NCBI GenBank assembly: GCA_039091535.1
Contig: JAWCLW010000001.1
Span: forward strand, 81,073-145,072
Source: Candidatus Aenigmatarchaeota archaeon
GTDB taxonomy: Archaea; Aenigmatarchaeota; Aenigmatarchaeia; GW2011-AR5
DNA: 64,000 nt
Reading direction: 5' to 3'
Part shown: piece by piece, positions 630-47,499 of the stretch
Layout: each line of letters opens with the position of its first letter
Numbering within the stretch: position 1 is the first letter of the stretch
Notes under the pieces: generated by a model
Told to the model about the DNA's origin: nothing
Databases searched by the model: none
What the model saw: only the letters and a program-made list of their open reading frames with translations
Position numbers and translations under genes: made by a program

Positions 630-751
630 AAATATGCTTATAAGTTTCGATATTTATAAACCTTTCTATTTTTCCTGCATATGCAGGGTAAAATTAGATA
701 TATAGGTGTGTTTATTATGATATAATAATAAATATTGCAGAGGAAATAAAA

Positions 752-2002: not shown

Positions 2003-2063
2003 AAGATTAGACAAAGCAAGTAAATACAAAAATCAAAATTGGTATAAAAATTTATCAAAAAAA

Positions 2064-2432: not shown

Positions 2433-2437
2433 ATAAT

Positions 2438-3211: not shown

Positions 3212-3247
3212 TTTGAAAGAGCTAATATAAAGAGATTAAGACTAACT

Positions 3248-3710
3248 CTATACCAAAGGGTGAAATTTTTTTCTTTCATCAATTTTTAGTTGCATTCTGT
3301 ATTCCTTTTTTTCAAACCCTAATCTTTTGTAGGTTTTAAACGCGACATTGTTTTTTACATTTACCATAACTTCAACAATACTACAATTCTTATCTTTAAA
3401 GAACTCCAACAATTTTTTTATTAGTTGTGTTACTATTCCTTTTCGCCTATAACGAGCTGAAACAATCGATTCTTGTATCTTTACCAATTTTATATTTATT
3501 CAATCGTTCAATATATCTCCAGATATAACTGATAATCTTATTGTTATTTTCAGCGACAAGAATCAAATTTTTCGAATCTTTTATTGCTGCAAGCTGAGAA
3601 TTCAATTTGATCTTCCACCATTTCTTAGAAACTTAATAAAAATTTCTATCAAATTTTCTATGATACGCTGTAGATTCTTTATCCAATTTTTGTATAATTT
3701 TAAATATCAT
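3248..3710 (-). pseudogene. GNAT acetyltransferase, disrupted (internal stop plus frameshift)
   Basis: The track ORF 3248..3487 encodes only the GNAT motif A/B half (RYRRKGIVTQLIKKLL...AFKTYKRLGFE). Upstream on the same strand I read MIFKIIQKLDKESTAYHRKFDRNFY*, then ...NLILVAENNNKIISYIWRY... in another frame. This is the missing N-terminal half, broken. Confidence 0.5.
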
Positions 3711-4067
3711 TACTAACAGCTCTGCGTATAAACATAATATTCATTGTAGATTTTCGTCTATTCTACATATTTTAATGAGCAGTTAGGATTTAGCCCTAAA
3801 TAATAATAGTTTTGTAATTCTTTGTTTTGTTCTTGGTGCATAACAGAGTTTTATAACTCAATACTTTAAATATCTAAGAGATGAAAAATCGTTTCTGTAA
3901 TATTTGAGCTAAATCGAAACTATCTGTGGCGAAAGTACCCTCGCAACCCATTTTTACTACCCTCATCCTGTTTTTCAAGTGGTTACAAATCAGAATTTGT
4001 TGAAAAAGATGTTAAAATGCATTCTGCTTGCAACAGAGAAAAATATAGATAAAAGTGTAAAAATTAT

Positions 4068-5102
4068 TTAAAGATGAAATAATTTAGATATAGAACCACC
4101 TGTTTGTATTTCATATATTGCATCTGAAATAATTGGCGCAACTGTCAAAACATTTAACCAATCTTTATTTTTTTCTATGTATTCTTTGTTTTTTGGTATT
4201 GTATCTGTTGTTATAACTTTTATACCATTTTTAGGAAATTCTTCTTCTGGATAATATAAAATTACATCGGTTTTCTTATCCTTTTTAGGACTAAAAACTG
4301 GGTGAGTAGCACATGTATATATATTTCTTGCTTTAGCCTCCTTAAGTTTTTTTGCTTCCTCAAGTATAGTCCCACCAGTATCGATCAAATCATCTAAAAT
4401 AATAACATCCCTATTTTCGACATGCTCCTTACCCATTATATAAATATCTTCAATTGATCCTGCTTCAGATCTTGTCTTGCTTATAACAACTAATCTAGAT
4501 CCCGGAAGATCTTTAGAAAACATTTTTGCTCTTTTAACACCGCCTGCATCTGGTGATACAATAGTAAAATTACCATCAATATTTCTGAAATAATCTAAAA
4601 ATAATGAATATGCTGTAAGGTTATCTATAGGATAACCAACAAATCCTTGTATCTGTCCAGCATGCATATCGAAAGTTACTACACGCATAGGTATAATACT
4701 ATCATATCCCCTTAACATCTGCATTGTTCTTCTTGCATTTAATGCTACCCCTGGCCTATCCATTCTATCCTGTCGTTGGAAAGGAATATATGGAAGTATG
4801 TAAGTTATTTCATTAACAGAAGAATTTCTTATCGCATCATCTATAAAATAAAGTTTCATAAATCCAATATTTGGATCATACTCATTTTTGTAGTCATAAA
4901 AATGATGAAAAATATAAACATCGCGCTTTCTTATATTATCCTTTATTTGAACATCGATCGATTTATCATTATGATATGTTATATTGATACGACCAAATGA
5001 AACTTCCCCATATTTTTCTGAAAAAAGTTTGTGAACTAATTTTACAAAATCCTCATTCTCGTTTGTACATAGAAATATCATATCCCTTAAATCACGGGAC
5101 AT
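4068..5102 (-). CDS. prs: ribose-phosphate pyrophosphokinase (PRPP synthetase)
   Basis: Contains YIPFQRQDR, DMHAGQIQGF, PIDNL, SPDAGGVKRA and the PRPP-binding loop ILDDLIDTGGT. Confidence 0.9.
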   Translation of the reverse strand: MSRDLRDMIFLCTNENEDFVKLVHKLFSEKYGEVSFGRINITYHNDKSIDVQIKDNIRKRDVYIFHHFYDYKNEYDPNIGFMKLYFIDDAIRNSSVNEITYILPYIPFQRQDRMDRPGVALNARRTMQMLRGYDSIIPMRVVTFDMHAGQIQGFVGYPIDNLTAYSLFLDYFRNIDGNFTIVSPDAGGVKRAKMFSKDLPGSRLVVISKTRSEAGSIEDIYIMGKEHVENRDVIILDDLIDTGGTILEEAKKLKEAKARNIYTCATHPVFSPKKDKKTDVILYYPEEEFPKNGIKVITTDTIPKNKEYIEKNKDWLNVLTVAPIISDAIYEIQTGGSISKLFHL

Positions 5103-5210
5103 AATTTTTTATAATTATGAAAATCTTTTTAAATCTAAATATCTTTTGTACTTCTTTTACATCACAAATAAATCACAACCTATAAATATTAGATAAAATA
5201 AAAAAAGATT

Positions 5211-7451
5211 ATGAAAAAGAAAAAAAATATTTTATTTTTTAATCGAATAAGAAAAAAGGATGTTTCTTTAGTTGGTGGTAAGAATGCTTCATTAGGCGAA
5301 TTAATGTCTATAAAGATGCCTGTACCTAATGGCTTTGCTATAACTGCGGATGCATATAGATATTTTATCAAAAAAAATGAATTGGACGAAAAAATAAAGT
5401 CAATACTTAAAAGAACAAACATAAAAAATATCAAACAACTAAAAAAATCTGGAAATGAAATTCGTAAACTCATTAAAAATGCAGAATTTCCAGATGATTT
5501 AAAAAACGATATTCTGAGTGCATTCAATGATCTTGGTGAAAAATATGTTGCTGTTCGAAGCAGTGCAACTGCAGAAGATTTACCATCAGCTAGTTTTGCG
5601 GGTCAGCAAGAGAGTTTTCTTAATATTGATAAAAATAATTTATTGAAAAGAATTAAAGATTGTTTTGCATCCCTGTTTACAGACAGGGCAATTTCATATC
5701 GTGAGGATAAAGGTTTTGATCATTTCAAGGTTTATTTATCTGTTGCTGTTCAGAAGCAAATATTTTCAAAATCAAGTGGTGTTATGTTTACAATTGATCC
5801 AGATAGTGGACACGAAAATTTCATTGTAATAAACTCCGGATTTGGTTTAGGTGATTACATTGTTCAAGGAAAAATAACACCAGATGAATTTTGGATATTC
5901 AAGAAAAATTGTAAATTAATAGGAAAAAAACTTGGAAGGAAAAAAATTATGGAAATCCGATCAATATTTGGTGTAAAGAAAAAGAAATTATCAAAAACGA
6001 TGCAAAATCAATTCTCATTAAGTGATAGTGAAGCAGAATTACTTGCAAAGTATGGTAAAAGAATTGAAAAGCATTATAAAACACCAATGGACATAGAATG
6101 GGCAAAAGATTATGATGACAAAATTTATATAATACAAGCACGTCCAGAGACTGTACACTCAACAAAAAATAGAAATATTTTCAAAGAGTACAAACTTGAA
6201 GAAAAAAGTATCATTCTTGCAAGAGGTCTTGCTATTGGAAGAAAAATAGCAGCAGGAAATGTAAATATAATAAAGAATGTTAAATACATTAATAAATTCC
6301 GTGAAGGACAGATACTTGTTACACAAAAGACAGATCCTGATTGGGAACCTATAATGAAGATAGCTGCTGGAATTATTACAGAAGAAGGCGGACGAACAGC
6401 CCATGCTGCTATTGTTTCAAGAGAATTAGGAATACCGGCAATTGTTGGTGTGGCAAATGCAACAAAGATTTTGAAAAACAATATGCCTATTACAATTGAT
6501 TGTACAAAGGAAACAGGAGTCATATGGAAAGGTAAAATGAAATATAAAGAGAAAATACATGATATTAAAAAAATTCCAAAGACAAAAACAAAAATATATG
6601 TTAATATAAGTGAACCAGATCAGGCAATCGATGCATCACTATTACCAATTGATGGTGTTGGACTTGCACGCGAAGAATTTATAATATCATCATCTATTGG
6701 AACTCATCCATTAGAGTTGATAAAATTAAAAAAGGAAAATGAATTCATAGAAAAGCTTGCATATGGAATAGCAAAAATATCAGCTGCGCTATATCCAAGA
6801 CCTGTCATTGTCCGCACAAGTGACTTCAAGACAAACGAATATAAAAATCTCAAAGGTGGTGAGAAATACGAACCACATGAAGATAATCCAATGATAGGAT
6901 GGCGTGGTGCTTCAAGATATATATCAAAAAATTATGAAGAGGCATTCCGACTTGAATGTAAAGCAATAAAAAAAGTTATAGATGATTTTGGTTTAAATAA
7001 TATTAAAGTTATGATACCATTCTGCAGAACAATCGATGAAGCAAAAAAAGTATTAAAAATAATTAAGAGTGAAAAATTAAATACAGAAATTGGTGTTATG
7101 GCTGAAATTCCATCAAATATTATTCTTGCAAAGGAATTTTCAAAATATTTTAAATTCTTTTCAATAGGAAGTAATGATCTGACACAATTAGTATTGGGTA
7201 TAGATAGGGATAACGAATCTCTTGCAAAGGAATTTAATGAAAAAAATGATGCTGTAAAAAGATTTATTTCACAATTGATTAAAACCGCTCATAAATATAA
7301 AAGAGATGTTGGTATATGCGGAGAAGCGCCTTCTGATTTTCCTGAATTTGTAGAATTTCTTGTAAGAGAAAAAATAGACTCAATAAGTGTAAATCCAGAT
7401 GTTGTCATACCTACACGATTATTAGTTTCAAAAATAGAAAGATTAGGATGA
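5211..7451 (+). CDS. ppsA: phosphoenolpyruvate synthase (pyruvate, water dikinase)
   Basis: N-terminal VGGKNASLGEL ATP-grasp, phosphohistidine swivel GGRTAHAAIVSRELGIPAIVG, and C-terminal PEP-utilising barrel (GSNDLTQL, CGE). Confidence 0.95.
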   Translation: MKKKKNILFFNRIRKKDVSLVGGKNASLGELMSIKMPVPNGFAITADAYRYFIKKNELDEKIKSILKRTNIKNIKQLKKSGNEIRKLIKNAEFPDDLKNDILSAFNDLGEKYVAVRSSATAEDLPSASFAGQQESFLNIDKNNLLKRIKDCFASLFTDRAISYREDKGFDHFKVYLSVAVQKQIFSKSSGVMFTIDPDSGHENFIVINSGFGLGDYIVQGKITPDEFWIFKKNCKLIGKKLGRKKIMEIRSIFGVKKKKLSKTMQNQFSLSDSEAELLAKYGKRIEKHYKTPMDIEWAKDYDDKIYIIQARPETVHSTKNRNIFKEYKLEEKSIILARGLAIGRKIAAGNVNIIKNVKYINKFREGQILVTQKTDPDWEPIMKIAAGIITEEGGRTAHAAIVSRELGIPAIVGVANATKILKNNMPITIDCTKETGVIWKGKMKYKEKIHDIKKIPKTKTKIYVNISEPDQAIDASLLPIDGVGLAREEFIISSSIGTHPLELIKLKKENEFIEKLAYGIAKISAALYPRPVIVRTSDFKTNEYKNLKGGEKYEPHEDNPMIGWRGASRYISKNYEEAFRLECKAIKKVIDDFGLNNIKVMIPFCRTIDEAKKVLKIIKSEKLNTEIGVMAEIPSNIILAKEFSKYFKFFSIGSNDLTQLVLGIDRDNESLAKEFNEKNDAVKRFISQLIKTAHKYKRDVGICGEAPSDFPEFVEFLVREKIDSISVNPDVVIPTRLLVSKIERLG

Positions 7452-10752: not shown

Positions 10753-11981
10753 TGTTAAAAGATTTTGATTATGAAGTCTGGGAAGCGATTAACAATGAAA
10801 AATTAAGACAAATGAACGGTTTAGAGTTGATAGCTTCTGAAAATTTAGTGAGCAAATCTGTTCTTGAGGTAGTGGGTTCAATTCTGACAAATAAATACTC
10901 TGAAGGATTGCCTGGAAAAAGGTATTATGGTGGAAATAAATTTATCGATCTCATAGAATCATTAGCCATAGAACGAGCAAAAAAATTATTTGGATGCGAG
11001 CATGTGAATGTACAACCATATTCTGGAAGTACAGCAAATCTCTCAGCACTTTATGCATTTCTAAAGATCGGGGAAAAATTTATGGGGATGAGTCTTACTC
11101 ATGGCGGTCATCTAACGCATGGTGCGTCTGTAAGTTTTTCTGGACAATTATTTAAATCGATACCTTATGGTGTTTCTAGAGAGACTGAACTTCTTGATTA
11201 CGATGAAATAAGAAAGATAGCTCTTGCTGAAAAGCCAAAATTAATTTTATCAGGACTATCAGCATATCCACGTGAGATTGATTTTAAAATATTTAGAGAA
11301 ATTTGTGATGAAGTCGGAGCATATCACATGGCAGACATAGCACATATTGCCGGACTTGTTGTTGGCGGTGTTCATCAAAGTCCCATACCATATGCTGATG
11401 TTGTAACAACTACTACACATAAAACATTAAGAGGACCACGCGGTGCAATTATAATGTGTAAAATGAAATATGCTGAAAAAATAGATAAAGCAGTATTCCC
11501 AACATTTCAAGGAGGACCACATAACAATATAAATGCAGCAAAGGCTGTGTGTTTTAAAGAAGCAATGCAACCAGAATTTAAAAAATATGTATATCAAATT
11601 GTAAAAAATGCAAAGGCATTGGCTGATGCATTACTTGATTATGGTTTTAGGCTTATTACTGGTGGTACAGATAACCATCTCATACTTGTTGATATGACTA
11701 ATAAAGGATTAACAGGAAAAGAGACAGAAAGCATTTTGGAAGAAGTAAATATCTATGTAAATAAGAACATGATTCCTTTTGATACAAGAAAACCTTCGGA
11801 CCCTTCTGGCATAAGATTAGGAACACCTACTCTTACAACACGTGGTATGAAGGAAAGTGAGATGAAATTTGTTGGTGAATTAATTAATAAAGCAATTGAA
11901 AACAAGGATAATAACATTGTAAAAGAAAAAATAAGGAAAGATGTTTTAGAATTATGCAATAAATTTCCGTTTTATGAGTAA
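10752..11981 (+). CDS. glyA: serine hydroxymethyltransferase
   Basis: [16 protein letters not shown] and [13 protein letters not shown] (PLP lysine) are present. The start overlaps the thyX stop (TAATG). Confidence 0.95.
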
Positions 11982-31862: not shown

Positions 31863-32226
31863 AAATTATAAATGCGATAGATATTATTCCTATGCATTTG
31901 AAATTCACTGACTTATTCACATGTTCACAAAAAATTTTCTTTTGTGTTCGTTAGTTGATCAGAATTCTTTAATAGATTTTGTTAAATTAAAGAATATTTT
32001 CAAAAGAAAAAATAAATTTATCTTGCGAATCTGTTAATTGTAATGTATCTGTGTTGTATTTGTGATTATAAATATGTTAGTTTCTATAAAGTAGTGACAA
32101 ATGCATAAGTTTAAAAGGATTTGGTATAATTATATAATCTCTCAAGAAATTTTTGTTACCAAACAAAAGATATATTTATAAAGATTTTGTTTAATATGTA
32201 TAATGTTAAAAAAAGAGGGTATTGAT

Positions 32227-33051
32227 ATGGTTGTAAGTTCAAAAACATTGGATGCATTAAAAACGATTGGTTTAAATAAATATGAAAGGAATTTGTGGGT
32301 CGCACTTCTTTCAAGAGGGGCATCAACTGCTGGAGAATTATCTGAAATATCTAAAGTTCCTAGATCTAGATGTTATGATGTCTTAGAATCATTAGCTGCA
32401 AAAGGCTTTATTGTTGTTCAACCTGGAAAACCATTGAAATATGTGGCCATAAATCCACGAGAGGCATTTGAGCGTGTGAAGAAAAAGATACAGGAAGATG
32501 CTGTTGAAATGGTTGAAAAGATTAATAGATTAGTAAAAACTGATACAATTAAAGAGCTTGAGAGGCTTCATAAAGAAAATATAAAAACAGTACAACCTGA
32601 GGATTTATCAGGGTCTTTAAAAGGCCGATATGCAATGTTGCAACAAATTGAAACAATGTTCAAAAAAGCGAAAAAATCAATAAAGCTTATGACCACAGAA
32701 TCCGGTCTATTAGAATTGATGGAACATCATTCTTCTCTTTTGAAGAAAATTTCTGCAAATGGTGTTAAAATACAGATAGCTGCTCCTATAACAAATAAGA
32801 CATCTGAAGTAGTAAAAGAACTTTCAAAATATGCCGAAATAAGAAATATAATGGATGTCGAACATATTGAAAAACTTCTTGGTCGACTTTATGTTGTTGA
32901 TGGTAATGAGCTTGTTCTTGGACTTACAGATGATACAAAAACTCATCCAACTCAAGATGTTGCATTTTGGACACAAAGCTCACATGCAACTTCTAATGTC
33001 TTTGAACCTATGTTTAAATTGATGTGGGCTCATGCAAAACCAATTAAATAA
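32227..33051 (+). CDS. TrmB-family transcriptional regulator
   Basis: LKTIGLNKYERNLWVALLSRGASTAGELSEISKVPRSRCYDVLESLAAKGFIV matches the TrmB winged helix. The ATG at 32227 follows GAGGGT. Confidence 0.85.
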   Translation: MVVSSKTLDALKTIGLNKYERNLWVALLSRGASTAGELSEISKVPRSRCYDVLESLAAKGFIVVQPGKPLKYVAINPREAFERVKKKIQEDAVEMVEKINRLVKTDTIKELERLHKENIKTVQPEDLSGSLKGRYAMLQQIETMFKKAKKSIKLMTTESGLLELMEHHSSLLKKISANGVKIQIAAPITNKTSEVVKELSKYAEIRNIMDVEHIEKLLGRLYVVDGNELVLGLTDDTKTHPTQDVAFWTQSSHATSNVFEPMFKLMWAHAKPIK

Positions 33052-33259
33052 ATCTTAATTAAAGCTTCCAAAAACTTAACAATGATAAAATGGTAAGTAT
33101 TATCTTATCTTAACCAAAATAGAGTGGTTAGTTAGAAATAAGATTCCATCTATTTCTATTTTGATACTAGAAAATTACTAGAAGTCTTCAAGATAGTAAT
33201 CTTTTGTTACTTCATATTTCTATAATTTATTTATATAACTAAAAAACAAAAATATACTT

Positions 33260-34507
33260 ATGTCTGTAGATATTTTGCTTTTATCTAAAATAATTCTTGC
33301 ACTACTTTTAGGTATATTCATTGGAACAGAGCGTGAATATCATAAAGGAAAGGTTGGATTGGGTATAAGAACAACAGCATTTATATCATTAATAGGAATG
33401 CTATCAACATATTTTTCATTAATCTATAATTCATCTTTAATTATGTTATTTACATTATTTACTGTTGCTGGATTTTCTATTTCAATATTTTGGTACCGTG
33501 TCAAAGAGCAGTTGCATCATGTTGGGCTAACGTCCTCTGCAACAATCCTTGTAACATTTTTTATTGGTGCAATGGTTGCTGTGAATTTATTTATAGAATC
33601 GATAATCCTTTCTGTAGCTGTTTTTATTCTTCTCTTTTCAAAAAAAAATATTAAGCATAAAATAAAAAATCTTACAGAAGAAGAAATAGTAAGTGCAATA
33701 CAGTTTGCGATTGTGGCATTTGTTATATATCCATTTATACCAGATGAAAAATTTATTTTTGTTAATTTTAAAGAAGTTTGGCTAATTGTCATCTTGGTTT
33801 CATTAATGTCATTCCTTGGATTTCTTGCGATTAGAAGATTTGGTGATGTAAAAGGTGTTTTATTCACAAGCATATTTGGCGGCATACTTACAAGCGGTGC
33901 AACAACTGTTGCACTTATAAATAATTATAAGAAGGATAGAAAATTACTTAATCTTTTCTTAGTTGGTATACTTTTGACATCGCTTATAATGGTATTCAGA
34001 AATCTTATTGTTGGTTTTATAGTATCACATGATATAGGTATGCTTGTGCCATTTTTGAGGTATATAATCATAAGTATAGTATACGCAATATTTGTTTTTT
34101 ATTTCTTAATAAAAAGATTTCCACATATATCTAAAAGAAAACATAAGATAAATGTAAAGTCCCCATTTGCAATAAAGCCTGCTTTATATTTTGGGGCTAT
34201 ATTTGTTTTTATTTTATTTATATCAAAATTGGCTTTTTTATACTTTGGTGATCAAGGTGTTATTATAGTAAGCTTCTTTGGCGGATTGGTAAATAGTGCA
34301 GCAACAACCGCTTCGTCTGCAACGCTATTCATGCAAGGCTATATAGATATGACAATATTTGTTTATTCAATTCTTTTAGCAACTATAGCAAGCTGGATTG
34401 ATGGTGTATTTGTAGCATATTTGTTCAATGAGAAAAAACTCGCCACTGCATTATTTAAATATATGTTTATATTAGTGATTTTACTGCTTGGTGTTAGCTT
34501 GATTTGA
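33260..34507 (+). CDS. MgtC/SapB-family membrane protein with DUF4010-like C-terminal half
   Basis: LALLLGIFIGTEREYHKGKVGLGIRTTAFISL matches the MgtC N-terminal signature. The protein is polytopic throughout. Confidence 0.75.
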   Translation: MSVDILLLSKIILALLLGIFIGTEREYHKGKVGLGIRTTAFISLIGMLSTYFSLIYNSSLIMLFTLFTVAGFSISIFWYRVKEQLHHVGLTSSATILVTFFIGAMVAVNLFIESIILSVAVFILLFSKKNIKHKIKNLTEEEIVSAIQFAIVAFVIYPFIPDEKFIFVNFKEVWLIVILVSLMSFLGFLAIRRFGDVKGVLFTSIFGGILTSGATTVALINNYKKDRKLLNLFLVGILLTSLIMVFRNLIVGFIVSHDIGMLVPFLRYIIISIVYAIFVFYFLIKRFPHISKRKHKINVKSPFAIKPALYFGAIFVFILFISKLAFLYFGDQGVIIVSFFGGLVNSAATTASSATLFMQGYIDMTIFVYSILLATIASWIDGVFVAYLFNEKKLATALFKYMFILVILLLGVSLI

Positions 34508-34517
34508 GGTGACTAAA

Positions 34518-35150
34518 ATGAATCTCCCTAAAGAAATCGAGAAATTTGTAAAGGCTTCATGGATTTTTTCAAATGTCATATATTTGATTATAATAGACAA
34601 GAAATATGAAAAACATATCAAAGAAAAAATGAAAAATTACAATTTAATAATAATCCAAACTGAAGATTTCTTTAAGTCTATCATGGAATATGATACAAAA
34701 CTTTTGATAAGCATAAGAGATGGAAAAATACTTTTTGATCCATTTGGAGTTGTAGGCGTAATCAAAAGAAGTGTTAAAAAAGGTATTATTGCAGGGACAA
34801 AAGAATCGTTATTTAGAAAATTCATGATAATACATAGATATCTTAATGAAATAGAAAATATAAAATACCACGTTTTCAACAATATCTACATGTCTGTTGT
34901 TGAATGTGGTCAAGCAGCATTAATAGCAAGAGGCTACCCAATATCGATACCAAGAGATATACCAAAACATATGAAAAAATACTTTTTAGGTAATGGCTTG
35001 GAAAAAACACATATTACATACTGTGAAGAGATAATAAAATTATATAAAAAATTTGAGCATGGGAAAACTCATTTACCCAATGGAAGAAAATTAGATGAAC
35101 TTGCAAAAAAGGCAGAAATATTTAGAAATGCTGTGAAGTCGATACTATGA
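34518..35150 (+). CDS. nucleotidyltransferase-like paralog lacking the catalytic motif, with helical HEPN-like C-terminal half
   Basis: The C-terminal helix SVVECGQAALIARG parallels SNAATEAAQILLLFEG of the downstream NTase gene. An RKFMIIH (Rx5H-like) motif is present. I found no GS...DxD motif. It overlaps the next gene by ATGA. Confidence 0.4.
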   Translation: MNLPKEIEKFVKASWIFSNVIYLIIIDKKYEKHIKEKMKNYNLIIIQTEDFFKSIMEYDTKLLISIRDGKILFDPFGVVGVIKRSVKKGIIAGTKESLFRKFMIIHRYLNEIENIKYHVFNNIYMSVVECGQAALIARGYPISIPRDIPKHMKKYFLGNGLEKTHITYCEEIIKLYKKFEHGKTHLPNGRKLDELAKKAEIFRNAVKSIL

Positions 35151-35896
35151 TAGATATCAAAAAAATAAATAATTTGTTGAAGCCGTTGATGAAATACAGG
35201 AAATATATAGAAGGCATATATATCTATGGAAGTGTGCTCCAGAAGAAAAAAGCAAATGATATAGATATTCTAATAATCCTTGTTGATTATCCTATCATTG
35301 GTGATAAAATAATAAAATCTATAGAAAATAACATAAAAGAAATTGAAAAAAATGCTGAAAAAGATAACATAAATTTACATTTCCAGCCATTAAAACCGCT
35401 TGATTTATGGTGGAACCTACTTATTCAAGGCGAACCATGGGTTGTGACATCGCTTAAGAAAATATTAATACTTTATGATAAGCATGGTTTAATAAAAGAA
35501 GTTCATAATTTCATAAAAGATGGTATGCTTTATTTAAGAGAAGAAAAAGCGGATAAATTGCTAGAGAGATCGGACAACCTCATACTAAAGAATAGGGATT
35601 TACTTCTTGAGAGTATTGTTCATCTTTCAAATGCAGCAACAGAGGCTGCTCAAATACTTTTACTTTTTGAAGGCAAGCTTGTTATTAACAAGAGAAAAAT
35701 AGCAAGAGATCTTATGAAATATAGTAAAACACTCTCTGTAGGCAACTATATAGAAATTATAGACCTTGAAGAAAAATTTGTAAAAGGTGTTTTGAGTGAA
35801 TTCACAGGCGAAAATTTGGATTACTATTCAGATGCCATCAAGAATTTCATAAATAAAATAGAAGCATTAATCCACAAAAAATACAAAGAAAAATAA
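35147..35896 (+). CDS. minimal nucleotidyltransferase (Pol-beta superfamily) with helical C-terminal domain
   Basis: IYIYGSVLQKKKANDIDILII matches the GS-x9-DxD NTase signature. Confidence 0.7.
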   Translation: MIDIKKINNLLKPLMKYRKYIEGIYIYGSVLQKKKANDIDILIILVDYPIIGDKIIKSIENNIKEIEKNAEKDNINLHFQPLKPLDLWWNLLIQGEPWVVTSLKKILILYDKHGLIKEVHNFIKDGMLYLREEKADKLLERSDNLILKNRDLLLESIVHLSNAATEAAQILLLFEGKLVINKRKIARDLMKYSKTLSVGNYIEIIDLEEKFVKGVLSEFTGENLDYYSDAIKNFINKIEALIHKKYKEK

Positions 35897-35958: not shown

Positions 35959-36597
35959 ATGAAAGATATCGATGATCTTTATAGATTAAAAATTAATGAT
36001 GAAGTTTTGCAAGGTATTTTTACTTGGCAAACTGTAGTTATTGATGAAGGTATAAAAGATTATTTGTTGTCTGAAGAAAAAGTTGATGAATATATAAATC
36101 TTTTATATATAGAAACTGAAAAGGTATTGATGGATATGGCTGAATATAGTTGGAAAAAAGTTCCATGTAATTGTAATCTAGATGATTGGTTTCCCCATGC
36201 ACTTCAAGGTATGAATCTTTCTGAAGCTCTTGAGAAAAGATTAGTAACATGCTTTCATAGATCTATTTTATATCAATTAATGGTTCAACAACTTCAACCA
36301 TATGCGATTGGCGCAATAATGGAGGGGGAAGTAAGAGAAGGTGAATTTTGTGAAGGTCATGCATACAATATAGTTTTTATTCCACAAACAAAAAAGAGAT
36401 TTTTAGTTGATACAGCATTTTTGAATAATGGTCAACCAATTGTTGCAGATTATAGTTGTGTTGAAAAATTAGGAGAATACGAACAAATTACAATCATATT
36501 AAAAGATGGTAAAAAAAGAAAATATTCTGGATATATATTAGAATATTTAAAAGATCCGGAAAAAACAAAAAAACATTTTGAAAGCTTACTTATTTAA
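35959..36597 (+). CDS. transglutaminase-like / papain-fold putative cysteine peptidase
   Basis: A candidate Cys-His-Asp triad has the right order and spacing: VTCFHRSILYQLM ... EGHAYNIVFI ... FLVDTAF. The call is by eye only. Confidence 0.45.
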   Translation: MKDIDDLYRLKINDEVLQGIFTWQTVVIDEGIKDYLLSEEKVDEYINLLYIETEKVLMDMAEYSWKKVPCNCNLDDWFPHALQGMNLSEALEKRLVTCFHRSILYQLMVQQLQPYAIGAIMEGEVREGEFCEGHAYNIVFIPQTKKRFLVDTAFLNNGQPIVADYSCVEKLGEYEQITIILKDGKKRKYSGYILEYLKDPEKTKKHFESLLI

Positions 36598-37529
36598 ATT
36601 TTTCTTATCATTATTATTTCAAAATCTTTTATATACGGGATTTCAACTCTTAATTTTTCTAAAAACTTATCTAATTCTATATTTGACTTAAAATCAACTT
36701 CGAATTCAAGATCCGAATCACCTATAATTTCATATATTTTTGTTACATTTGGATTCTGGGAAAGATATTGAATTATTATTTTCTTTTTTAATGGGTTATT
36801 TAACGTTATCAAGATTTTGTATTTTTCATATCCTAATAAAGATGTATTTAGATTAGGTATAAATCCTTTTATTATACCTTTTGCTATAAGATTTCTCAAT
36901 CTATAATTTAATGTTGTTGATGGTATACCCAATATTTTAGATAATTCTGTTATTTCTATTCTAGCATTTTCTATTATCACATCTAAAATTTTATAGTCTG
37001 TTTCATCTATTTCATAAGTTTTGTGATCTCCTATAACAATTGCTTTATGCATTCTATGCAAATATTTATGTCCTAAAAAGTAAATCTTTGTTATTATAGA
37101 AAAATCCTTGTTATGTATGTATTTTGAGTTTTTTTCTATAAAATTATCATAAAATTCATAAAAATCTCTTGATTTTCTTGCCCATACAACTATTTCTATA
37201 TCCCATCGGCTTTGAACAAATGTTTGTATATCCACACCTTTTATTTTTTTCAAATCATCTACTATTCTTTTTCTATCATTTAGGCCTAGATTATACAAAT
37301 TGACAAGAAGTTTATAAGATTCATATCCTAAAGAGAAATAATCTATAATTGAAAAAAACCCTTTTATAAAGCCAGAATCGATTAATCTTTTTAACCTATA
37401 GTTAGCAACTTCTTTGCTTACCAAAATTGCTCTTGCTATATGTGAAATGCTTTCTCTTGAGTTTTTTTCCAATTCATAAATTAATTTCAAATCCTTTATA
37501 TCCAATTTAAAATATTTTTTATTTTCCAT
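36594..37529 (-). CDS. tandem (duplicated) Lrp/AsnC-type transcriptional regulator
   Basis: Two HTH_AsnC modules are present: LDIKDLKLIYELEKNSRESISHIARAILVSKEVANYRLKRLIDSGFIKG and IDETDYKILDVIIENARIEITELSKILGIPSTTLNYRLRNLIAKGIIKG. Each is followed by a RAM-like domain. The start is trimmed to the ATG at 37529. Confidence 0.75.
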   Translation of the reverse strand: MENKKYFKLDIKDLKLIYELEKNSRESISHIARAILVSKEVANYRLKRLIDSGFIKGFFSIIDYFSLGYESYKLLVNLYNLGLNDRKRIVDDLKKIKGVDIQTFVQSRWDIEIVVWARKSRDFYEFYDNFIEKNSKYIHNKDFSIITKIYFLGHKYLHRMHKAIVIGDHKTYEIDETDYKILDVIIENARIEITELSKILGIPSTTLNYRLRNLIAKGIIKGFIPNLNTSLLGYEKYKILITLNNPLKKKIIIQYLSQNPNVTKIYEIIGDSDLEFEVDFKSNIELDKFLEKLRVEIPYIKDFEIIMIRKI

Positions 37530-37699
37530 ATTTTTATTATATAACAATTTATTTATATATTTTTCGTTTTTTGAGTAAAAAATATAACAAAAACTTTTTA
37601 TATATGTTCTTATTAATAAGTAATATCTTTGGGGTGTACAAATTAAAACCGATAACATATTGATGTTTGAAAAAAGCCATAAAAAAATGGTGGAGAAAA

Positions 37700-38587
37700 A
37701 TGAAATCTGAAAAAATAATTTTGCAAAAACCAAAAAAAGAAAATTTGTCTAAAATGCCAGACTTAGTTAGAAAATATTATGAAACTATTGAGAATAAAAA
37801 TTACAATCCTAGAGGGAAGATTTTTAGCATAGAAATTAAACGTGAGAGTTGGGATTCAGGAACAGACGGCATGGCTTATTTTAATGAGCTAATAGTGGAG
37901 AAAGAAAATAAAGTAGTCTATAGGAGTGGAATGATGAAATATAGAGGAGCTTACAACTGGGAAATTGATGATCACGACGCCCACTTGTTTGATCCTTCAA
38001 TTTTAGAAGAAAAAAGTAATGAAGTAGTATTTGGATTGAGAACTGGTGCAGGAAAAATAAAGATATACAGATTAAAAGGGGATAAGCTAGAAAATCTTTA
38101 CACTTTTGACATTGATGGTTACAAGAAAAAGAAGGAAAGAAATGAGTTAATTGAAAAAATTCTTGAAGATCCAGATGAATGGGTCAAGTATATTAAAAAT
38201 GAGCAAGGACATCATTGGTATGTTGATTATTGGAGTATGGAGGATTTGAAAAATAAAAAAGAAGAAGATAATAAATGGAGGGACGATTACCAAATTCTTG
38301 ATGATGGAAATTTGATTATAGCACTAGCGAAACATTACGATAGAGACTATGATCCTATCGCAGATTATTACAACGTGTACTTTTGGAAAAAAGGGGTTGG
38401 TATAGCAAAATCAAAAATTTATTATACAGGACTTAGCCACCCTTCGTTTGAAAAATTTTATATAATTGGTGTTGGATTTTTAGAACCAGCATCTTATGAT
38501 AAAGATAAACAGATAGTTATAGCAAAAATAGGAAATAAGGGACAAAACAAAGTAATAGAACATGAATTTGAGTTAGAAGAAAAGTAA
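37700..38587 (+). CDS. island gene A: uncharacterised Trp/Tyr/Asp-rich protein
   Basis: The ATG at 37700 follows GGTGGAG. No known domain recognised. The C-terminal part resembles gene C (ADYYNVYFWKKGVG versus YGYDTVYLVWKDKKGK). Confidence 0.6.
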   Translation: MKSEKIILQKPKKENLSKMPDLVRKYYETIENKNYNPRGKIFSIEIKRESWDSGTDGMAYFNELIVEKENKVVYRSGMMKYRGAYNWEIDDHDAHLFDPSILEEKSNEVVFGLRTGAGKIKIYRLKGDKLENLYTFDIDGYKKKKERNELIEKILEDPDEWVKYIKNEQGHHWYVDYWSMEDLKNKKEEDNKWRDDYQILDDGNLIIALAKHYDRDYDPIADYYNVYFWKKGVGIAKSKIYYTGLSHPSFEKFYIIGVGFLEPASYDKDKQIVIAKIGNKGQNKVIEHEFELEEK

Positions 38588-38630
38588 GGAGTTAGAAAAT
38601 TCAAAGAAGTATAATAACAAAAACAAAAGC

Positions 38631-38674
38631 CAATCGAGCACGACGCGATGAAGTAAATGGAGGGGTGAAGAAAA
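38631..38674 (+). repeat. junction element copy 1
   Basis: caatcGAGCACGACGCGATGAAGTAAATGGAGGGGTGAAGaaaa lies directly before the ATG at 38675. Confidence 0.9.
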
Positions 38675-39322
38675 ATGAAGAAAATGAAAATATTACTTGT
38701 GGAAGATCAAGAAGAAAATAGAAGAGCGGCTCAGCAATATTTTACTCAGAAAGATCATGTTCATGTAGAGTATGCTATTGATTATAATCAAGCAGTGGAA
38801 AAATTAAATAAAGAATTATATGATGGTATAATCACAGATATTTTCATGCCTCAGGAAACAGGAACAAATGAACGTCGTTTAGGAATTGAAGCTTATAAAA
38901 AGATCTATTTTAAAATATATGATGATTTTGAGAGAGAAGCTGCAAAGGAAGAAGGCTCCTACTTCATCCATACTATAGATCACGTATTAAATTGCTGTTA
39001 TGAATTAAAAGAGAAATTATTTGAAGGCAACAACAATCAGCCTTTAGGAGTCCTTATTGCAGAGAAAGCAGAAGAACTGGGAATCCCCTGTGTCATAGCA
39101 ACTTCATTGTTTCATCATCATGTGATGGCTGAACCAGTTTTCTATTATGTTTATCATAGTGATTCTTTAAAAAAGTGTAAAATATATGAAGGTGAGATAG
39201 TAACTGATGGCAGTGGAAGGAACTTAAAGACAACTCAAGAATATTGGGATGAAGTTTATACTGCTTTACTATCAAGAATCAAAGAAGAAAAAGGGGAAGC
39301 AGAGCACAACGCGATGAAGTAA
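38675..39322 (+). CDS. island gene B: receiver (REC/CheY-like) domain protein with atypical C-terminal half
   Basis: KILLVEDQEENRRAAQQYF...AIDYNQAVEKLNKELYDGIITDIFMP aligns residue-for-residue with CheY beta1-beta3 (acidic pair ED, phospho-acceptor D in TDIFMP). A long insert follows before a possible beta4 (VIATS). Confidence 0.65.
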   Translation: MKKMKILLVEDQEENRRAAQQYFTQKDHVHVEYAIDYNQAVEKLNKELYDGIITDIFMPQETGTNERRLGIEAYKKIYFKIYDDFEREAAKEEGSYFIHTIDHVLNCCYELKEKLFEGNNNQPLGVLIAEKAEELGIPCVIATSLFHHHVMAEPVFYYVYHSDSLKKCKIYEGEIVTDGSGRNLKTTQEYWDEVYTALLSRIKEEKGEAEHNAMK

Positions 39323-39339
39323 ATGGAGGGGTGAAGAAA
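39296..39339 (+). repeat. junction element copy 2 (its 5' half encodes the last 7 codons of gene B)
   Basis: gaagcaGAGCACAACGCGATGAAGTAAATGGAGGGGTGAAGaaa lies directly before the ATG at 39340. Confidence 0.9.
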
Positions 39340-40119
39340 ATGGAAAATTTCGAAAAGTATGTGGAAGAAGCGATGAATAAAATTGTTAAAACTTATCAGC
39401 ATGACCATCCATTGTATCAAGAAACGCACATAGTAAAAAGCATTATTAACAAAGATAAGCAGATAGCTGCGTTTGTATTGTTCGAACAGATAGATACTGA
39501 TAGATACACCCCTAATGGAGATGGTTGGCGAGGAGATCAGTATAGATATAGTGTTTGGTATATAAGAGGATTTGAAGAGCCAAAACAAATTTACGAAGAT
39601 CATGCATGGAAAAGAAGGTCGATTTCTGGTTTAACAGGAACAAAAGGCAGAGATCCTTACATTGGCCTAGAGGAGCTGCTTGAGGACGGGGTCATTGTAA
39701 CAATAACTCCTGAAGGAACCCAGGATGCTTATGGCGATCTTTCACAAGTAAAAGTAAAGATAACATTTGACGGCAAAATTGAAGAGCCTGAAGATTTCAT
39801 TGAGCGAGCAAAAAATCTGGTTAAAAGAATAGGACCAAAACTAGGATATGATTATTTAAGTGGAGAAAAACAGCTCGAAGGAAAAAATGTTGCTGCATTT
39901 GTCTGGGCAGCTGAAAATGGCTCGACTTATGGATATGATACAGTTTATCTTGTATGGAAAGATAAAAAGGGAAAAATAAACTATGAAGAACTTACAAATT
40001 CAAGGTATGACAAGGCTTATCTTAGCATCGATGAGCTTCGAGAGGAAGGGGATAAAATAATAATAAAAGTAAAAGGTAGGAAGTACGAGAGAAGCAAGAA
40101 AGAGCTAGGGCTAAAATAA
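39340..40119 (+). CDS. island gene C: uncharacterised protein, possible distant paralog of gene A
   Basis: The ATG at 39340 sits 7 nt after GGAGGGGTGA. No known domain recognised. Confidence 0.6.
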   Translation: MENFEKYVEEAMNKIVKTYQHDHPLYQETHIVKSIINKDKQIAAFVLFEQIDTDRYTPNGDGWRGDQYRYSVWYIRGFEEPKQIYEDHAWKRRSISGLTGTKGRDPYIGLEELLEDGVIVTITPEGTQDAYGDLSQVKVKITFDGKIEEPEDFIERAKNLVKRIGPKLGYDYLSGEKQLEGKNVAAFVWAAENGSTYGYDTVYLVWKDKKGKINYEELTNSRYDKAYLSIDELREEGDKIIIKVKGRKYERSKKELGLK

Positions 40120-40206
40120 ACTGTTTGGGCAGTAAGGCAAGTGACCAACCTAAAGAATTTTTGTGTTATAGAAAAAAACAGATAAAGGAATATTAATAAA
40201 AAGATA

Positions 40207-40257
40207 GAAGCAGAATGAGCACGACGCGATGAAGTAAATGGAAGGAGGTAAGGGAAA
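40207..40257 (+). repeat. junction element copy 3
   Basis: gaagcagaatGAGCACGACGCGATGAAGTAAATGGAAGGAGGTAAGggaaa lies directly before the ATG at 40258. Confidence 0.9.
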
Positions 40258-40977
40258 ATGGAAAAGGAAATAATTGAAAAAATAAAAGAAAATCCTGGAA
40301 AGATTTTGCTTACCACAGATGTTCATGGTGATAAGGAGAATCTTATTAAAGCAATGAAGATTGGCAAAGAAAAAGGAGCCAAAATTGCATTTGATCTTGG
40401 AGATACAGAACTAGGACAAAAAATATATGATAAGATTGCAAGAGACATTGGTTTAGAGGGAGGTATAATACTTGAAACTTTTTATGATCATATTTTAAAT
40501 GGAGAAAAGGACATTAAAGAAATAAGCAAATTATTTATAAACAATGGGACAATACTTCCAGTTCATTATGTTATATACAATGACAAGTTTGAAAAATATG
40601 TTATTAGTGAAGGTTCAAGAGAACTTAGTGAAGATATAATGGAAAGAAATTATAATAAAAATGATCTTGAAAAAATAATAGAAAGATCACGTTTGGAACC
40701 ATTTTTAATAATTAAAGGAGATGACCACAAGGCTTATATAGGAAAAGTTAAAAACGTAGAAAAAATATTCAGTGTGAAGTATGTGCCTCGTTCTGAATTA
40801 ACTGATAAAGAACTAAAATTATTTGAACTAAAAGATGAAACAGAAATAAATGAACCTGGATTATATGTTATTAATCCTGGGTTTATATTTCGGGATCAGG
40901 AAGTTTTATTCTCATGCATGGTTTTAGATTGTACTAGAAAAGGTTATTTCAAGATAGAGTACATTCCATTGATTTAA
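40258..40977 (+). CDS. island gene D: divergent YfcE/MJ0936-type metallophosphoesterase-like protein
   Basis: KILLTTDVHGD (DxH motif), AFDLGD (GD motif), IIKGDDH in place of GHTH, YVINPGF (NPGS-like), and a C-terminal beta-strand pattern. The GNHD-type motif is not evident. Confidence 0.5.
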   Translation: MEKEIIEKIKENPGKILLTTDVHGDKENLIKAMKIGKEKGAKIAFDLGDTELGQKIYDKIARDIGLEGGIILETFYDHILNGEKDIKEISKLFINNGTILPVHYVIYNDKFEKYVISEGSRELSEDIMERNYNKNDLEKIIERSRLEPFLIIKGDDHKAYIGKVKNVEKIFSVKYVPRSELTDKELKLFELKDETEINEPGLYVINPGFIFRDQEVLFSCMVLDCTRKGYFKIEYIPLI

Positions 40978-41006
40978 TAAAACAATAAATCACCGGGGTG
41001 TGATGC

Positions 41007-41047
41007 TAATCGAGCACGATGCAGAGGGGAGGGGGGGGGAGATAAAA
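41007..41047 (+). repeat. junction element copy 4 (5' half conserved, 3' half replaced by G-rich run)
   Basis: taatcGAGCACGATGCAGAGGGGA-G9-AGATAAAA lies directly before the ATG at 41048. It shares AATCGAGCACGA with copy 1. Confidence 0.7.
41031..41039 (+). repeat. G9 homopolymer in the ribosome-binding region of gene E
   Basis: Nine consecutive G read directly from the sequence. The tract ends 8 nt upstream of the ATG at 41048. Confidence 0.9.
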
Positions 41048-41581
41048 ATGAAAAATTATAAACAACTTTACTTGAAGAGAATAAAAGAAAAAAATGATGA
41101 TAAAGAAGTAAAGAAACAACTAGAAGACATAATAAACAGAGAAACAGTAGGAGTCAAAAAATTTGGAAAAATTGACTATGGTGAATGTGATTGTGATTGG
41201 TGTCAGAAAATCCATGGAGATTATATTTACAGTGGTTTATTAAATTACAAGCCAAGCAGCATGGATAGAATTGGTCATTATGCAGCCTTTATATTAAATA
41301 AGGAAACACAAATTATGGGCGCTGGCTTACAAATATTACAAGATTTTGGAGTAATAGAAAAAGGCAAAATTTACAGATATGGATTTAGAACAATCAGTGA
41401 TGGAAGGACTTTCACTAAATATAATTCATATTACATTGGTGTTGCAATATTGGAGATAGATGAAAAAAATCACGAAGTCACAATTGGATTAGGATCAGCT
41501 GATGATTACTTAGACGTTTATAAATTAAATACTAAAAAAGGAGAATTTGAAAAGATAATGAGCAGAATAAAATTAAAATAA
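41048..41581 (+). CDS. island gene E: uncharacterised protein with CxCxxCxxxH cluster
   Basis: MKNYKQLYLKR... with GECDCDWCQKIHGD. The frame is also open from the ATG at 41003 through the junction element (MLIEHDAEGRGGEIK-M...). Confidence 0.55.
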   Translation: MKNYKQLYLKRIKEKNDDKEVKKQLEDIINRETVGVKKFGKIDYGECDCDWCQKIHGDYIYSGLLNYKPSSMDRIGHYAAFILNKETQIMGAGLQILQDFGVIEKGKIYRYGFRTISDGRTFTKYNSYYIGVAILEIDEKNHEVTIGLGSADDYLDVYKLNTKKGEFEKIMSRIKLK

Positions 41582-41781
41582 TGGTATATGAACTTTCCGG
41601 GACAAAGAAAGAGCTTGATAATGTTATTAATTTGCTGAATAAAGACAGGAATATTTGTTTATGTTTAAAATTCGGTTAGATTCATCAAGATGATTATTTA
41701 CAATACATTAAATTCCGATTTAATGATAAAAATAATAAAAATTTATTAGTCATGAAATATAATAAATAAGATGTGAATAAA

Positions 41782-42630
41782 ATGGAAAAAATAAATGCAG
41801 ATGAACTGTACATGCCACAAACAGAGATATGGAAATGGAACCTAAAAAAATATGCTAAGGAAAATAGCTTAAAAGAAATAAAGAATACAAGTTTTTATCT
41901 AACAAAATTTGAGGATTTTCCAACAGCAGATAATATATCCGTATTACTTGTAAGAATAGCATTAGCAGATTTAGAAGGTAGATTATCAAAAGAAAAGAAA
42001 TATGTTGTTCTTCAAACCTATTATGATGATGGTGACTTAAGTACTCTCGATATTGTCAGACTTCCATTAGATTTACATAAAGAAATTAAAAGAGAGTATT
42101 TGAATAAGATTTTAACTGAAAATATAAGTAGACAGCCAAATCTTTTGCTTTCCAAAGATACATTTTCAAGGTATTTGACAGCAGGTGGGTTTATTGATGG
42201 TAATGAAAAGAATATAGAGTTTTATGGGTCAAGCAGTGATTTCTCTAATAAATTTTCTATATATTCTGTAAATGATATCGTAGCGTATCTTGTAAAAGAA
42301 TCTGGGTTATTTGAAAATGTCAAAAGCAAAGATGAAGGTTTAGAAAAAGGGGAAGAATATATCAATAGATGTCTCGATCTAATGAAAAAATATAAATTAA
42401 AGTCAGAATTCTATTCACAATTAATTGATTTATATCAGCTTGAAAAAATAAGAAATAAAGAATATGTCGGCTCACATATTCTTTATTCAATAGCTATGAT
42501 GAAAAGCATAGATAAAGCAATAAAAGAAGATAAAGACTTTCTACAAGCATTTATAGAAGAAGGTACAGAAGGAATTTGCAGGGAAATGTTAATAAGAGGC
42601 ATTGCAGAAATATTAAAAACAAGTGATTAA
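41782..42630 (+). CDS. island gene F: uncharacterised protein (282 aa)
   Basis: Clean ORF on the same strand. It is not preceded by the junction element. No domain recognised. Confidence 0.5.
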   Translation: MEKINADELYMPQTEIWKWNLKKYAKENSLKEIKNTSFYLTKFEDFPTADNISVLLVRIALADLEGRLSKEKKYVVLQTYYDDGDLSTLDIVRLPLDLHKEIKREYLNKILTENISRQPNLLLSKDTFSRYLTAGGFIDGNEKNIEFYGSSSDFSNKFSIYSVNDIVAYLVKESGLFENVKSKDEGLEKGEEYINRCLDLMKKYKLKSEFYSQLIDLYQLEKIRNKEYVGSHILYSIAMMKSIDKAIKEDKDFLQAFIEEGTEGICREMLIRGIAEILKTSD

Positions 42631-47413: not shown

Positions 47414-47499
47414 AGCCCCGTGGTGTAGTGGTCAAAATTTTTGACTAAGCATATCGGGCTTTGGACCCGACGACGACGGTTCGAATCCGTCCGGGGCTA
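47414..47499 (+). tRNA. tRNA-Gln(UUG) with 13-nt hairpin insertion in the D-loop
   Basis: AGCCCCG TG GTGT AGTGGTC[AAAATTTTTGACT]AA GCAT A TCGGG CTTTGGA CCCGA CGAC GACGG TTCGAAT CCGTC CGGGGCT A. All four stems pair and the anticodon is TTG. The D-loop is 22 nt instead of about 9. Confidence 0.85.

Follow-up and report, generated by a model that had tools for sequence, protein, structure and literature searches.

A candidate receiver-linked gene module with a patchy distribution across DPANN archaea and CPR bacteria

Does a run of genes without a known role form a system, and if it does, which of the genes belong to it? The locus that raises this question lies in a 64,000-nt stretch of contig JAWCLW010000001.1 (the window; 29% GC) from the metagenome-assembled genome (MAG) of a DPANN archaeon, Candidatus Aenigmatarchaeota. 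Positions 35959 to 42630 had been flagged from the sequence as an island (the original prediction) made up of a transglutaminase-like gene (TG), a divergent tandem Lrp/AsnC regulator (tandem Lrp) and six co-directional genes, A to F. A recurring neighbourhood of several uncharacterised genes including a receiver-like gene was indeed found, whereas the boundaries were wrong: TG, D and F are lineage-specific singletons, and a nucleotidyltransferase pair (NT1 and NT2) that had been placed outside recurs with C. In the best-supported description, A, B and C recur as a unit rather than the whole island, often with a divergent winged helix-turn-helix (wHTH) regulator and sometimes with the Pol-beta nucleotidyltransferase pair. 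We tentatively propose that the core, A, C, E and B, is a genuine, undescribed and loosely organised receiver-linked module with a patchy, cross-domain distribution.

Window proteins were compared by tblastn with related loci, followed by all-against-all clustering of the open reading frames (ORFs); collected related loci carry L-numbers (L001, L005 and so on) and related proteins P-numbers. A adjoins C-type genes in 12 loci. The B family is present in 20 loci, and in at least 10 of them the gene that directly follows B is of the C type. Furthermore, in bacteria of the candidate phyla radiation (CPR), a single polypeptide of 416–448 residues combines A with the N-terminal domain of C (C_N) (L013, L014, L015/L063, L061, L062/L066 and P0062), and nine non-redundant A-C_N fusion proteins were found in Kazan, Saccharibacteria and other Patescibacteria. 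Because A and C recur side by side and are fused in CPR bacteria, we consider them linked and read them as proteins that work together. For enrichment, genes within three positions of an A or C gene were counted as near in 67 non-redundant loci. Receiver-like genes were strongly concentrated near A/C genes (31/306 near, 5/375 further away; odds ratio 8.3, p = 3e-7), as was the NT pair to a lesser degree (8/306 and 1/375; p = 0.013). A receiver-like gene was nearby in 25 of the 67 loci, and several loci hold two or three such genes. TrmB-type regulators occurred in 20 loci, the tandem Lrp in about 10 and the NT1/NT2 pair in 5–6; E matched one locus, and D, F and TG had no match outside their own organism among the surveyed A/C loci. 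The co-occurrence of A, C and receiver-like genes in other genomes, with A-C adjacency and fusion, bears out the idea that homologues of the flagged genes share neighbourhoods.

The same survey bears on an alternative in which there is no system: the genes would be unrelated and lineage-specific, and the repeated leader described below would have arisen as a side effect when a strong ribosome-binding site was duplicated locally. It would fit the lack of conserved linkage of TG, D and F, a leader missing in most C loci, the absence of an assigned function for every orphan and a delimited island that resembles its surroundings in composition. We nevertheless judge this alternative quite unlikely, given the A-C fusions in another domain of life, the enrichment of receiver-like genes near A/C genes, the conserved B-to-C order and a leader kept across genomes in different frames.

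What A and C are was approached through profiles and models. Neither protein had a match in Pfam, NCBIfam, PHROGs or PADLOC, and searches of A and C profiles against PDB sequences were also empty. Confident AlphaFold2 (AF2) models predict A as a two-lobed, beta-rich protein (pLDDT 88, pTM 0.82) and C as two domains, C_N (residues 1–130) and C_C (residues 140–259) (pLDDT 91, pTM 0.85); each lobe of C is modelled as a helix followed by an antiparallel beta-meander, and the lobes of A as mainly beta-meander. A Foldseek search of the A model against PDB gave TM-scores of at most 0.22, and this structure and profile check assigned no family or fold to A or C. A beta-propeller fold was considered for both and rejected, the Foldseek matches (A and C against PDB, C against BFVD) being local and blade-like with TM-scores of at most 0.29 and root-mean-square deviations of 9–19 Å. 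In the family alignment, E49, D52, D87, H88 and R104 of C are invariant and H23 and D54 nearly so, and the family carries the motifs HQHNHP, FEQIDTDR, GDQYRYS, EDHAY and GRD. The invariant residues of A are R82, D90, E104, R215 and D218, with D214 kept in most members, and its motifs are YRGAY and DRDYD. Since these invariant residues are charged, the conserved polar pattern suggests a catalytic or ligand/metal site in A and C. The earlier suggestion that C is possibly related to A found no backing (hhalign probability 0.3%); a MAFFT co-alignment pairs the C-terminal lobe of A with C_N, which is suggestive only. The profile search with the A alignment returned 6 proteins, a figure limited by the word prefilter.

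The domains of C occur in several arrangements. Among non-redundant proteins, 26 have the order C_N-C_C and 16 the permuted order C_C-C_N, while 13 consist of C_N alone, 12 of C_C alone and eight of A alone; besides the nine A-C_N fusions, C_C-C_N-C_N and C_N-C_N are represented by one protein each. The reversed proteins, of about 268 amino acids, come from CPR loci (L007, L046, L048–L051, L056 and others) and amount to a circular permutation at the level of domains. Distant proteins with a C_C domain offered weak leads only, namely cystatin-like repeats (P0157) and an APH kinase-like region (P0143, P0176).

C is the most conserved gene of the locus. Its homologues, 65 at 45–76% identity, occur in DPANN and CPR organisms, and scans with the C-family alignment found 12 loci in species-representative genomes and 71 loci in metagenomes. 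The named carriers are Aenigmatarchaeota, Woesearchaeota, Pacearchaeota and Micrarchaeota among DPANN archaea and Kazan, Saccharibacteria, Moraniibacteriota, Tagabacteria and other Patescibacteria among CPR bacteria; outside these groups we found two short contigs, one assigned by binning to Methanosarcinales and one to Bdellovibrionales. When 1.84 billion cluster representatives were searched in full with HMMER, only 169 clusters matched at E ≤ 0.001, which makes the C family rare. According to a survey of DPANN protein families, only a few families of unknown function were detected in bacteria (PMC8204110). The module is among those few and is worth following up for this reason; its parts are joined in one protein in one domain of life and separate in the other.

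B is an atypical single-domain CheY-like receiver. Its description as receiver-domain-like was confirmed by a PF00072 score above the gathering threshold (37.9 bits, cut-off 30.2, E = 2.2e-9), the alignment covering residues 6–64 only, which correspond to model positions 1–58 of 111. In the alignment, the acid pocket E10-D11 and the acceptor D55 (ITDIFMP) are conserved across 20 family members, T143/S144 are kept in most, and a conserved K185, a candidate for the beta-5 Lys, precedes an invariant Trp. The family further has a variable insertion of about 75 residues, a His147–149 motif, the block 'P-L-G ... G-I-P-x-V-x-x-T-S ... H-H' and a C-terminal K...W motif. With the receiver pocket kept across the family, B looks functional. 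Compared with CheY-like response regulators (PF00072), the N-terminal half of B is alike in its acidic pair, the acceptor Asp in D-x-F-M-P and, in most members, a Thr/Ser after beta-4. It differs, first, in the insertion after beta-3, so that only the first 58 model positions align; second, in the conserved His-rich motif after beta-4 and the lack of an output domain; and third, in its surroundings, where the conserved partners are A/C proteins and where no histidine kinase (HisKA, HATPase_c) was found among the eight products tested in and next to the island or around the module genes of seven related loci with Pfam annotation.

The divergent gene was correctly described as a duplicated Lrp/AsnC regulator: HTH_24 (E = 1.2e-23) and HTH_AsnC (E = 7.9e-18) each match two stretches, and one RAM domain was detected (AsnC_trans_reg, residues 251–305), whereas Pfam detected no RAM domain in the first half. 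It is like Lrp/AsnC regulators in its HTH_AsnC and RAM domains and its divergent orientation, and differs in that a single chain of 311 residues joins two complete units. Homologues of the tandem Lrp lie upstream of A/C-type genes in their loci, and elsewhere a TrmB-type regulator takes the same position. A TrmB-family regulator and an MgtC/DUF4010 membrane protein also lie in the window directly upstream of the NT pair (32203–34507). This TrmB gene could be connected to the module as well, because in many other loci a TrmB type stands upstream of the A/C genes in divergent orientation.

Four genes of the locus also share an upstream sequence. Unusually strong GGAGG ribosome-binding sites had been attributed to A–E; they are present at B, C and D, whereas E has only a G-rich equivalent and A none. 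The GGAGG site proved to be the 3' end of a repeat of about 55 nt, hereafter the leader, before B, C, D and E (Table 1). Its core, GAGCACGACGCGATGAAGTAAATGGAGG, has three matches with at most one mismatch in the window, where none is expected, and a partial copy before E; the 5' half of the leader is GAGCACGACGCGATGAAG. R1, a sequence model built from seven leader instances, found exactly these four copies in the window and four more in 57 related loci (698 kb), which precede the A homologue and the next gene in L091 and the C homologues in L005 and L026. The stretch of copy 1 is ~98% identical to the A-downstream spacer of L091. GGAGG stands 4–14 nt before a start four times in the window, at B, C, D and position 47542, the last of doubtful role because it lies inside an ORF; the usual Shine-Dalgarno sequence of this genome is GGTGA-like.

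A conserved ORF of 45–57 codons (M.KEKYE...YEDL..YP.L...ELEI..NK) comes first in the operon in L005, L091 and L020; it shows synonymous substitutions, and its 3' end is the leader. The window has no full leader ORF, only four 3' remnants, each joined to an extended GGAGG-type Shine-Dalgarno. The last ~25 nt of the leader are conserved as nucleotides though the frames differ between genomes, which points to constraint at the DNA or RNA level. We also considered the leader as a set of conserved mini-ORFs and rejected this, stops and frames being different between genomes. The arrangement resembles the leader peptides of bacterial operons in that a short ORF opens the operon in these three loci and its 3' end abuts the next ribosome-binding site. 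It differs in that no terminator or antiterminator structure was found for the leader, in that its 3' end is conserved as nucleotides across frames, and in that the window keeps this 3' remnant in four copies without the ORF. Beyond the anti-Shine-Dalgarno, pairing of the leader with 16S rRNA was no better than that of shuffled sequences. A search of viral contigs gave zero matches and then one chance match, in a high-GC contig of bacterial type.

Some observations on translation signals stand beside these results. The 16S rRNA gene of L005 (7019–8461, minus strand) ends in ...GGGAUUACCUCCU, so that the anti-Shine-Dalgarno of this Pacearchaeote is AUUACCUCC and not AUCACCUCC; the Shine-Dalgarno of the L005 leader and that of window copy 3 (GGAGGTAAG) fit this variant well. 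In the window, a run of nine G residues precedes E (41031–41039) in a genome of 29% GC and is identical in the independent Logan assembly L001. The NCBI call for E (192 amino acids, start 41003) would put this run inside the coding region, where it could be slippage-prone. Meanwhile, L002 contains a GC-rich repeat, GAGGACGAGGAGCC(C)AAAGG(G)CGACGAAGAGT, twice near a C homologue (5316–5353 and 10887–10920); the second copy is directly downstream of the C gene and ends in ...GAAGAGTAAAT, loosely like the window leader with an insertion.

The leader also marks the points at which gene content changes. In a close relative, a Pacearchaeota-labelled MAG (QW244), A has 88.7% nucleotide identity, and a copy of TG that is at least 90% identical lies elsewhere in the genome. 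The sequence of QW244 matches the window through A and the A-downstream spacer and diverges exactly after the leader, the gene order being TrmB (minus strand), a small ORF, A, leader, X, B' and, further on, a DUF87 ATPase and SLT-LysM. X (L091 10966–11745, against window 39340–39373) begins with the first 11 codons of C, with 95.8% identity over 72 nt including the leader, and continues as an unrelated 263-residue protein. Similarly, L020 has a 275-residue B paralogue with the first 13 codons of B. Because these 5' ends are shared, recombination in the leader/start region is suggested.

These junctions also invite a second alternative, a variable cassette array in which the leader serves as a recombination or junction site for the gain and loss of unrelated small genes, for example immunity, effector or host-interaction genes. 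The same leader before four unrelated genes, the contrast between A-leader-X-B' in the relative and A-leader-B-leader-C-D-E-F here with X keeping 11 codons of C, the 13 codons shared by the L020 paralogue, the orphans D and F, the shuffled, permuted and split domains of C and the patchy distribution across two domains of life can all be read in this way. However, no recombinase, integrase or transposase was found in or near the locus or in the Pfam-annotated related loci, the leader has no inverted repeat or attC-like structure and folds no better than shuffled controls, only four copies occur in the window, and no toxin or immunity family was matched. Moreover, A, B and C keep 50–76% identity beside housekeeping genes, unlike fast-evolving cassettes. 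We regard a cassette array as unlikely. Integron cassettes and the recombinase-associated orphan-immunity arrays of Bacteroidales are similar in having co-directional unrelated genes after a shared sequence, with content that differs at the junctions. The present locus departs from such arrays in lacking an integrase or recombinase and an imperfect inverted repeat or attC-like fold, in having only four copies, and in the position of the repeat, which precedes the start codon of each gene and takes in the Shine-Dalgarno; an integron array proper was rejected, with no tyrosine recombinase and no attC-type inverted repeat found. The original prediction had likewise reported no integrase or transposase, and the domain scan found neither; the nearest tRNA (47414–47499) is 4.8 kb away.

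Composition and synteny speak to the same point. C lies near ThrRS and Elp3 in a Woesearchaeote (L009), as it does here (C 63% and Elp3 47% identical between the window and L009), and near exosome/proteasome genes in L005 and L026; because C occupies such housekeeping neighbourhoods, the locus does not look like a classic horizontally acquired island. The comparison with relatives thus gave a mixed outcome for the accessory island that had been proposed, C–F being absent at the A locus in QW244 and C being syntenic with ThrRS and Elp3 in the Woesearchaeote. The GC content at third codon positions (GC3) is raised in C (z = 3.0), NT2 (2.4), A (1.9), B (1.9) and NT1 (1.3), and not in TG, the tandem Lrp, D and F. 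Taken together, NT1, NT2, A, B, C and E gave a Mann-Whitney p of 3e-4 for a set chosen after the values had been seen. The compositional distinctness surmised for the island therefore holds in GC3 for A, B, C, NT1 and NT2, but not for the island as delimited (p = 0.19).

Two observations concern the wider surroundings of A/C genes: a DUF87 (HerA/VirB4-like) ATPase and an SLT-LysM gene lie downstream in L091 (13260–15637), and a type IV secretion system pilin lies upstream of a C-type gene in a Tagabacteria locus (L007 590–2220). The module may have a link to conjugation or cell-contact machinery.

Under the receiver-linked reading, A and C would act as a complex with a phosphoryl group, a metal ion or a charged ligand bound to it, and the state of this complex would be coupled to phosphorylation of B at Asp55, with A/C as the output of B or its phosphodonor. 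The leader would give the downstream genes unusually strong and uniform translation initiation and would supply the homology at which genes are swapped in and out; in this genome, the module would have been extended by the lineage-specific D and F and by E, and genes of the module would have been equipped with the duplicated leader.

Several observations weigh against this reading. The A domain is present in only 7 of the 31 C_N-carrying contigs of at least 6 kb, a receiver-like gene is nearby in only 37% of loci, and TrmB/Lrp regulators are not significantly enriched near A/C genes (17/306 near, 11/375 further away; p = 0.12). The leader is missing upstream of the closest C homologues (76% and 71% identity) and of most others. 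As a structured RNA it was rejected, with fold z-scores of -0.4 to +0.8, and it had no gathering-level match in Rfam 15, where the matches at E ≤ 10 were only chance ones of the C/D-box type, off the leader. The ligand, metal or phosphoryl role of A/C, for its part, is a candidate role read from conserved residues. Since A is found in so few C_N contigs and a receiver in so limited a share of loci, the module has to be called loose, and because the closest C homologues lack the leader, the module does not depend on it.

A bolder version of the receiver-linked reading, which we consider improbable, would make A/C the missing partners of orphan receivers: a non-canonical complex that senses and donates phosphoryl groups (or relays them) in place of histidine kinases, a new type of two-component-like signalling shared by DPANN and CPR organisms through inter-domain transfer, with the leader coordinating translation of the set. 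DPANN and CPR are the two great ultrasmall radiations, mostly episymbiotic, and most of their lineage-specific genes are unexplained. If A/C do partner receivers in signalling or as enzymes, they would show how organisms with a minimal repertoire sense and respond, and would provide a concrete case of inter-domain sharing between the two radiations. The leader, in turn, would be a compact cis-element that controls translation or serves gene turnover, and this in an archaeon whose usual Shine-Dalgarno is different.

The flanking NT pair raises the question of whether nucleotides carry a signal here. NT2 is a Pol-beta superfamily nucleotidyltransferase with a GS...DIDILI motif and a helical C-terminal half (PF18765 Polbeta, E = 3.4e-6, 27.6 bits, cut-off 26.9). 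NT1 is an inactive-looking paralogue that clusters with NT2, lacks the catalytic motif and has no Pfam match. Homologues of NT2 at 31–55% identity adjoin C homologues, and those of NT1 adjoin C in L005/L006, L010 and L020/L094; the pair, treated as a flank in the original prediction, was found again beside C in five non-redundant loci that span at least four lineages. In its PF18765 match, its GS...DxD motif and its paired paralogous partner, NT2 resembles MNT/HEPN-like Pol-beta pairs, from which the present pair differs in that the proteins are about twice the size of minimal toxin-antitoxin pairs and NT1 has no catalytic motif.

In a third alternative, the pair would make a nucleotide signal or modification, A, C and B would sense or relay it, and its removal would fall to a phosphoesterase, namely D in the window and a DHH-CBS enzyme in L020/L094. 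The recurrence of the pair beside C, the catalytic motif kept in NT2, the GC3 raised in common in NT1, NT2, A, B and C, and a DHH-CBS-DHHA2 phosphoesterase between C and the NT pair in L094 are in its favour. Yet the pair is found in only 5 of 67 loci, D has no detectable homology to phosphoesterases, and no cyclase, CARF, SAVED or effector domains were found. The DHH-CBS enzyme of L020/L094 has the domain make-up of what we take to be an ordinary CBS-type family II pyrophosphatase. On balance, we assign nucleotide signalling a low probability.

D was central to the earlier argument, in which a receiver and a degenerate YfcE-type metallophosphoesterase together suggested a signalling or conflict module. 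D had no Pfam or NCBIfam match at E ≤ 10 and no PDB sequence match; its sole trace is PHROG 1649 (E = 0.15), and of the five metal-binding motifs of that family (DxH, GD, GNH[DE], H and GHxH) only DVHGD and GD were seen, by eye (unconfirmed). The identity of D as a phosphoesterase, on which the argument from the pairing relied, has no profile support, and PADLOC gave nothing specific. D is a lineage-specific orphan, found in the same organism only (L001).

An anti-virus defence or conflict system is the explanation that we find hardest to credit. An operon of orphan genes with a patchy distribution would suit it, toxin-antitoxin modules lie near the C homologue of L002, and B has weak PADLOC matches (PDC-M60B, E = 8e-6), which cover the generic receiver N-terminus only. 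In PADLOC-DB 2.0, B and the tandem Lrp matched generic receiver and wHTH models only and no match with E below 0.1 was obtained for A, C, D, E or F, so that the conflict reading lacks a specific match. The scans detected no effector domain of any kind, be it nuclease, ATPase, toxin, Sir2 or TIR, and the housekeeping neighbourhoods of C and its strong conservation are atypical for defence genes.

As to the gene map on which the receiver-linked reading is laid out (Table 1), all eight ORFs were present on the strands claimed for them, and 35959 and 42630 are genuine gene ends. In the NCBI annotation, where TG through F are numbered QXD48_00770 to QXD48_00805, B is a 'response regulator', the divergent gene is an 'Lrp/AsnC family transcriptional regulator' and the remaining genes are hypothetical. 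The upstream sequence and a separate gene prediction for the identical Logan contig (L001) served to refine the start codons. The gaps from A to F are, in order, 87, 17, 138, 70 and 200 nt. In scans of all eight products, Pfam, NCBIfam, PHROGs and PADLOC recognised only the tandem Lrp and the N-terminus of B; for the other six products, TG, A, C, D, E and F, a search opened to E ≤ 10 gave no Pfam match above threshold. The statement that the products have no known role was accordingly borne out, none being assignable to a known family.

Table 1 Coordinates of genes, leader copies and leader ORFs (window positions unless a locus is named)
Feature	Coordinates	Strand	Remarks
NT1	34509..35150	+	upstream of TG
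NT2	35147..35896	+	upstream of TG
TG	35959-36597	+	
Tandem Lrp	36594-37529	-	divergent from A
A	37700-38587	+	refined start
Leader copy 1, before B	38620..38676	+	exact 28-mer; R1 51.3 bits; TATA-like AT-rich stretch, GAGCACGACGCGATGAAGTAAATGGAGGGGTGA core, Shine-Dalgarno
B	38675-39322	+	
Leader copy 2, before C	39300..39340	+	27/28 bases; R1 36.5 bits; overlaps last B codons
C	39340-40119	+	refined start
Leader copy 3, before D	40201..40256	+	27/28 bases; R1 28.6 bits
D	40258-40977	+	
Leader copy 4, before E, partial	40997..41051	+	AATCGAGCACGATGC, then G-rich Shine-Dalgarno with G9 run; R1 29.7 bits
E	41048-41581	+	refined start
F	41782-42630	+	refined start
Leader ORF, L005	9838-10011		upstream of A or C homologues
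Leader ORF, L091	9841-10011		upstream of A or C homologues
Leader ORF, L020	540-677		upstream of A or C homologues

The remaining genes can be sorted by their relation to the core: D, F and TG are lineage-specific additions and not conserved parts, and E is assigned to the module as a paralogue of one lobe of A. TG had been called transglutaminase-like, for which Pfam (Transglut_core), NCBIfam and PDB gave no match; a C...H...D pattern (TCFH, GHAYN, VDTAF) was seen by eye only. It is a singleton in the locus clustering and not part of the module, and in a third relative a copy with 90% identity or more stands among ribosomal genes, flanked by EF-1alpha and an aminoacyl-tRNA synthetase, with no module beside it. 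F, a lineage-specific orphan, is a singleton apart from L001, from the same organism. It is probably a separate transcription unit, following an AT-rich gap without a leader. Its sub-threshold Pfam matches, Transposase_31 (YhgA-like; E = 0.02) and RNA_pol_Rpb4 (E = 0.013), are probably due to chance. E, a stand-alone protein with a CxCxxCxxxH insert, is paralogous to the N-terminal lobe of A; it is 36.6% identical over 112 residues to a 319-residue protein of L036, which matches A of the window and other A-family proteins. L036 also contains four tandem paralogues of 413–542 amino acids (2–5993, minus strand) with near-identical N-termini (…YNELNKAWK.TCK.LFGEEIGELKEYEEWL…), upstream of a cluster of A-like, C and receiver genes.

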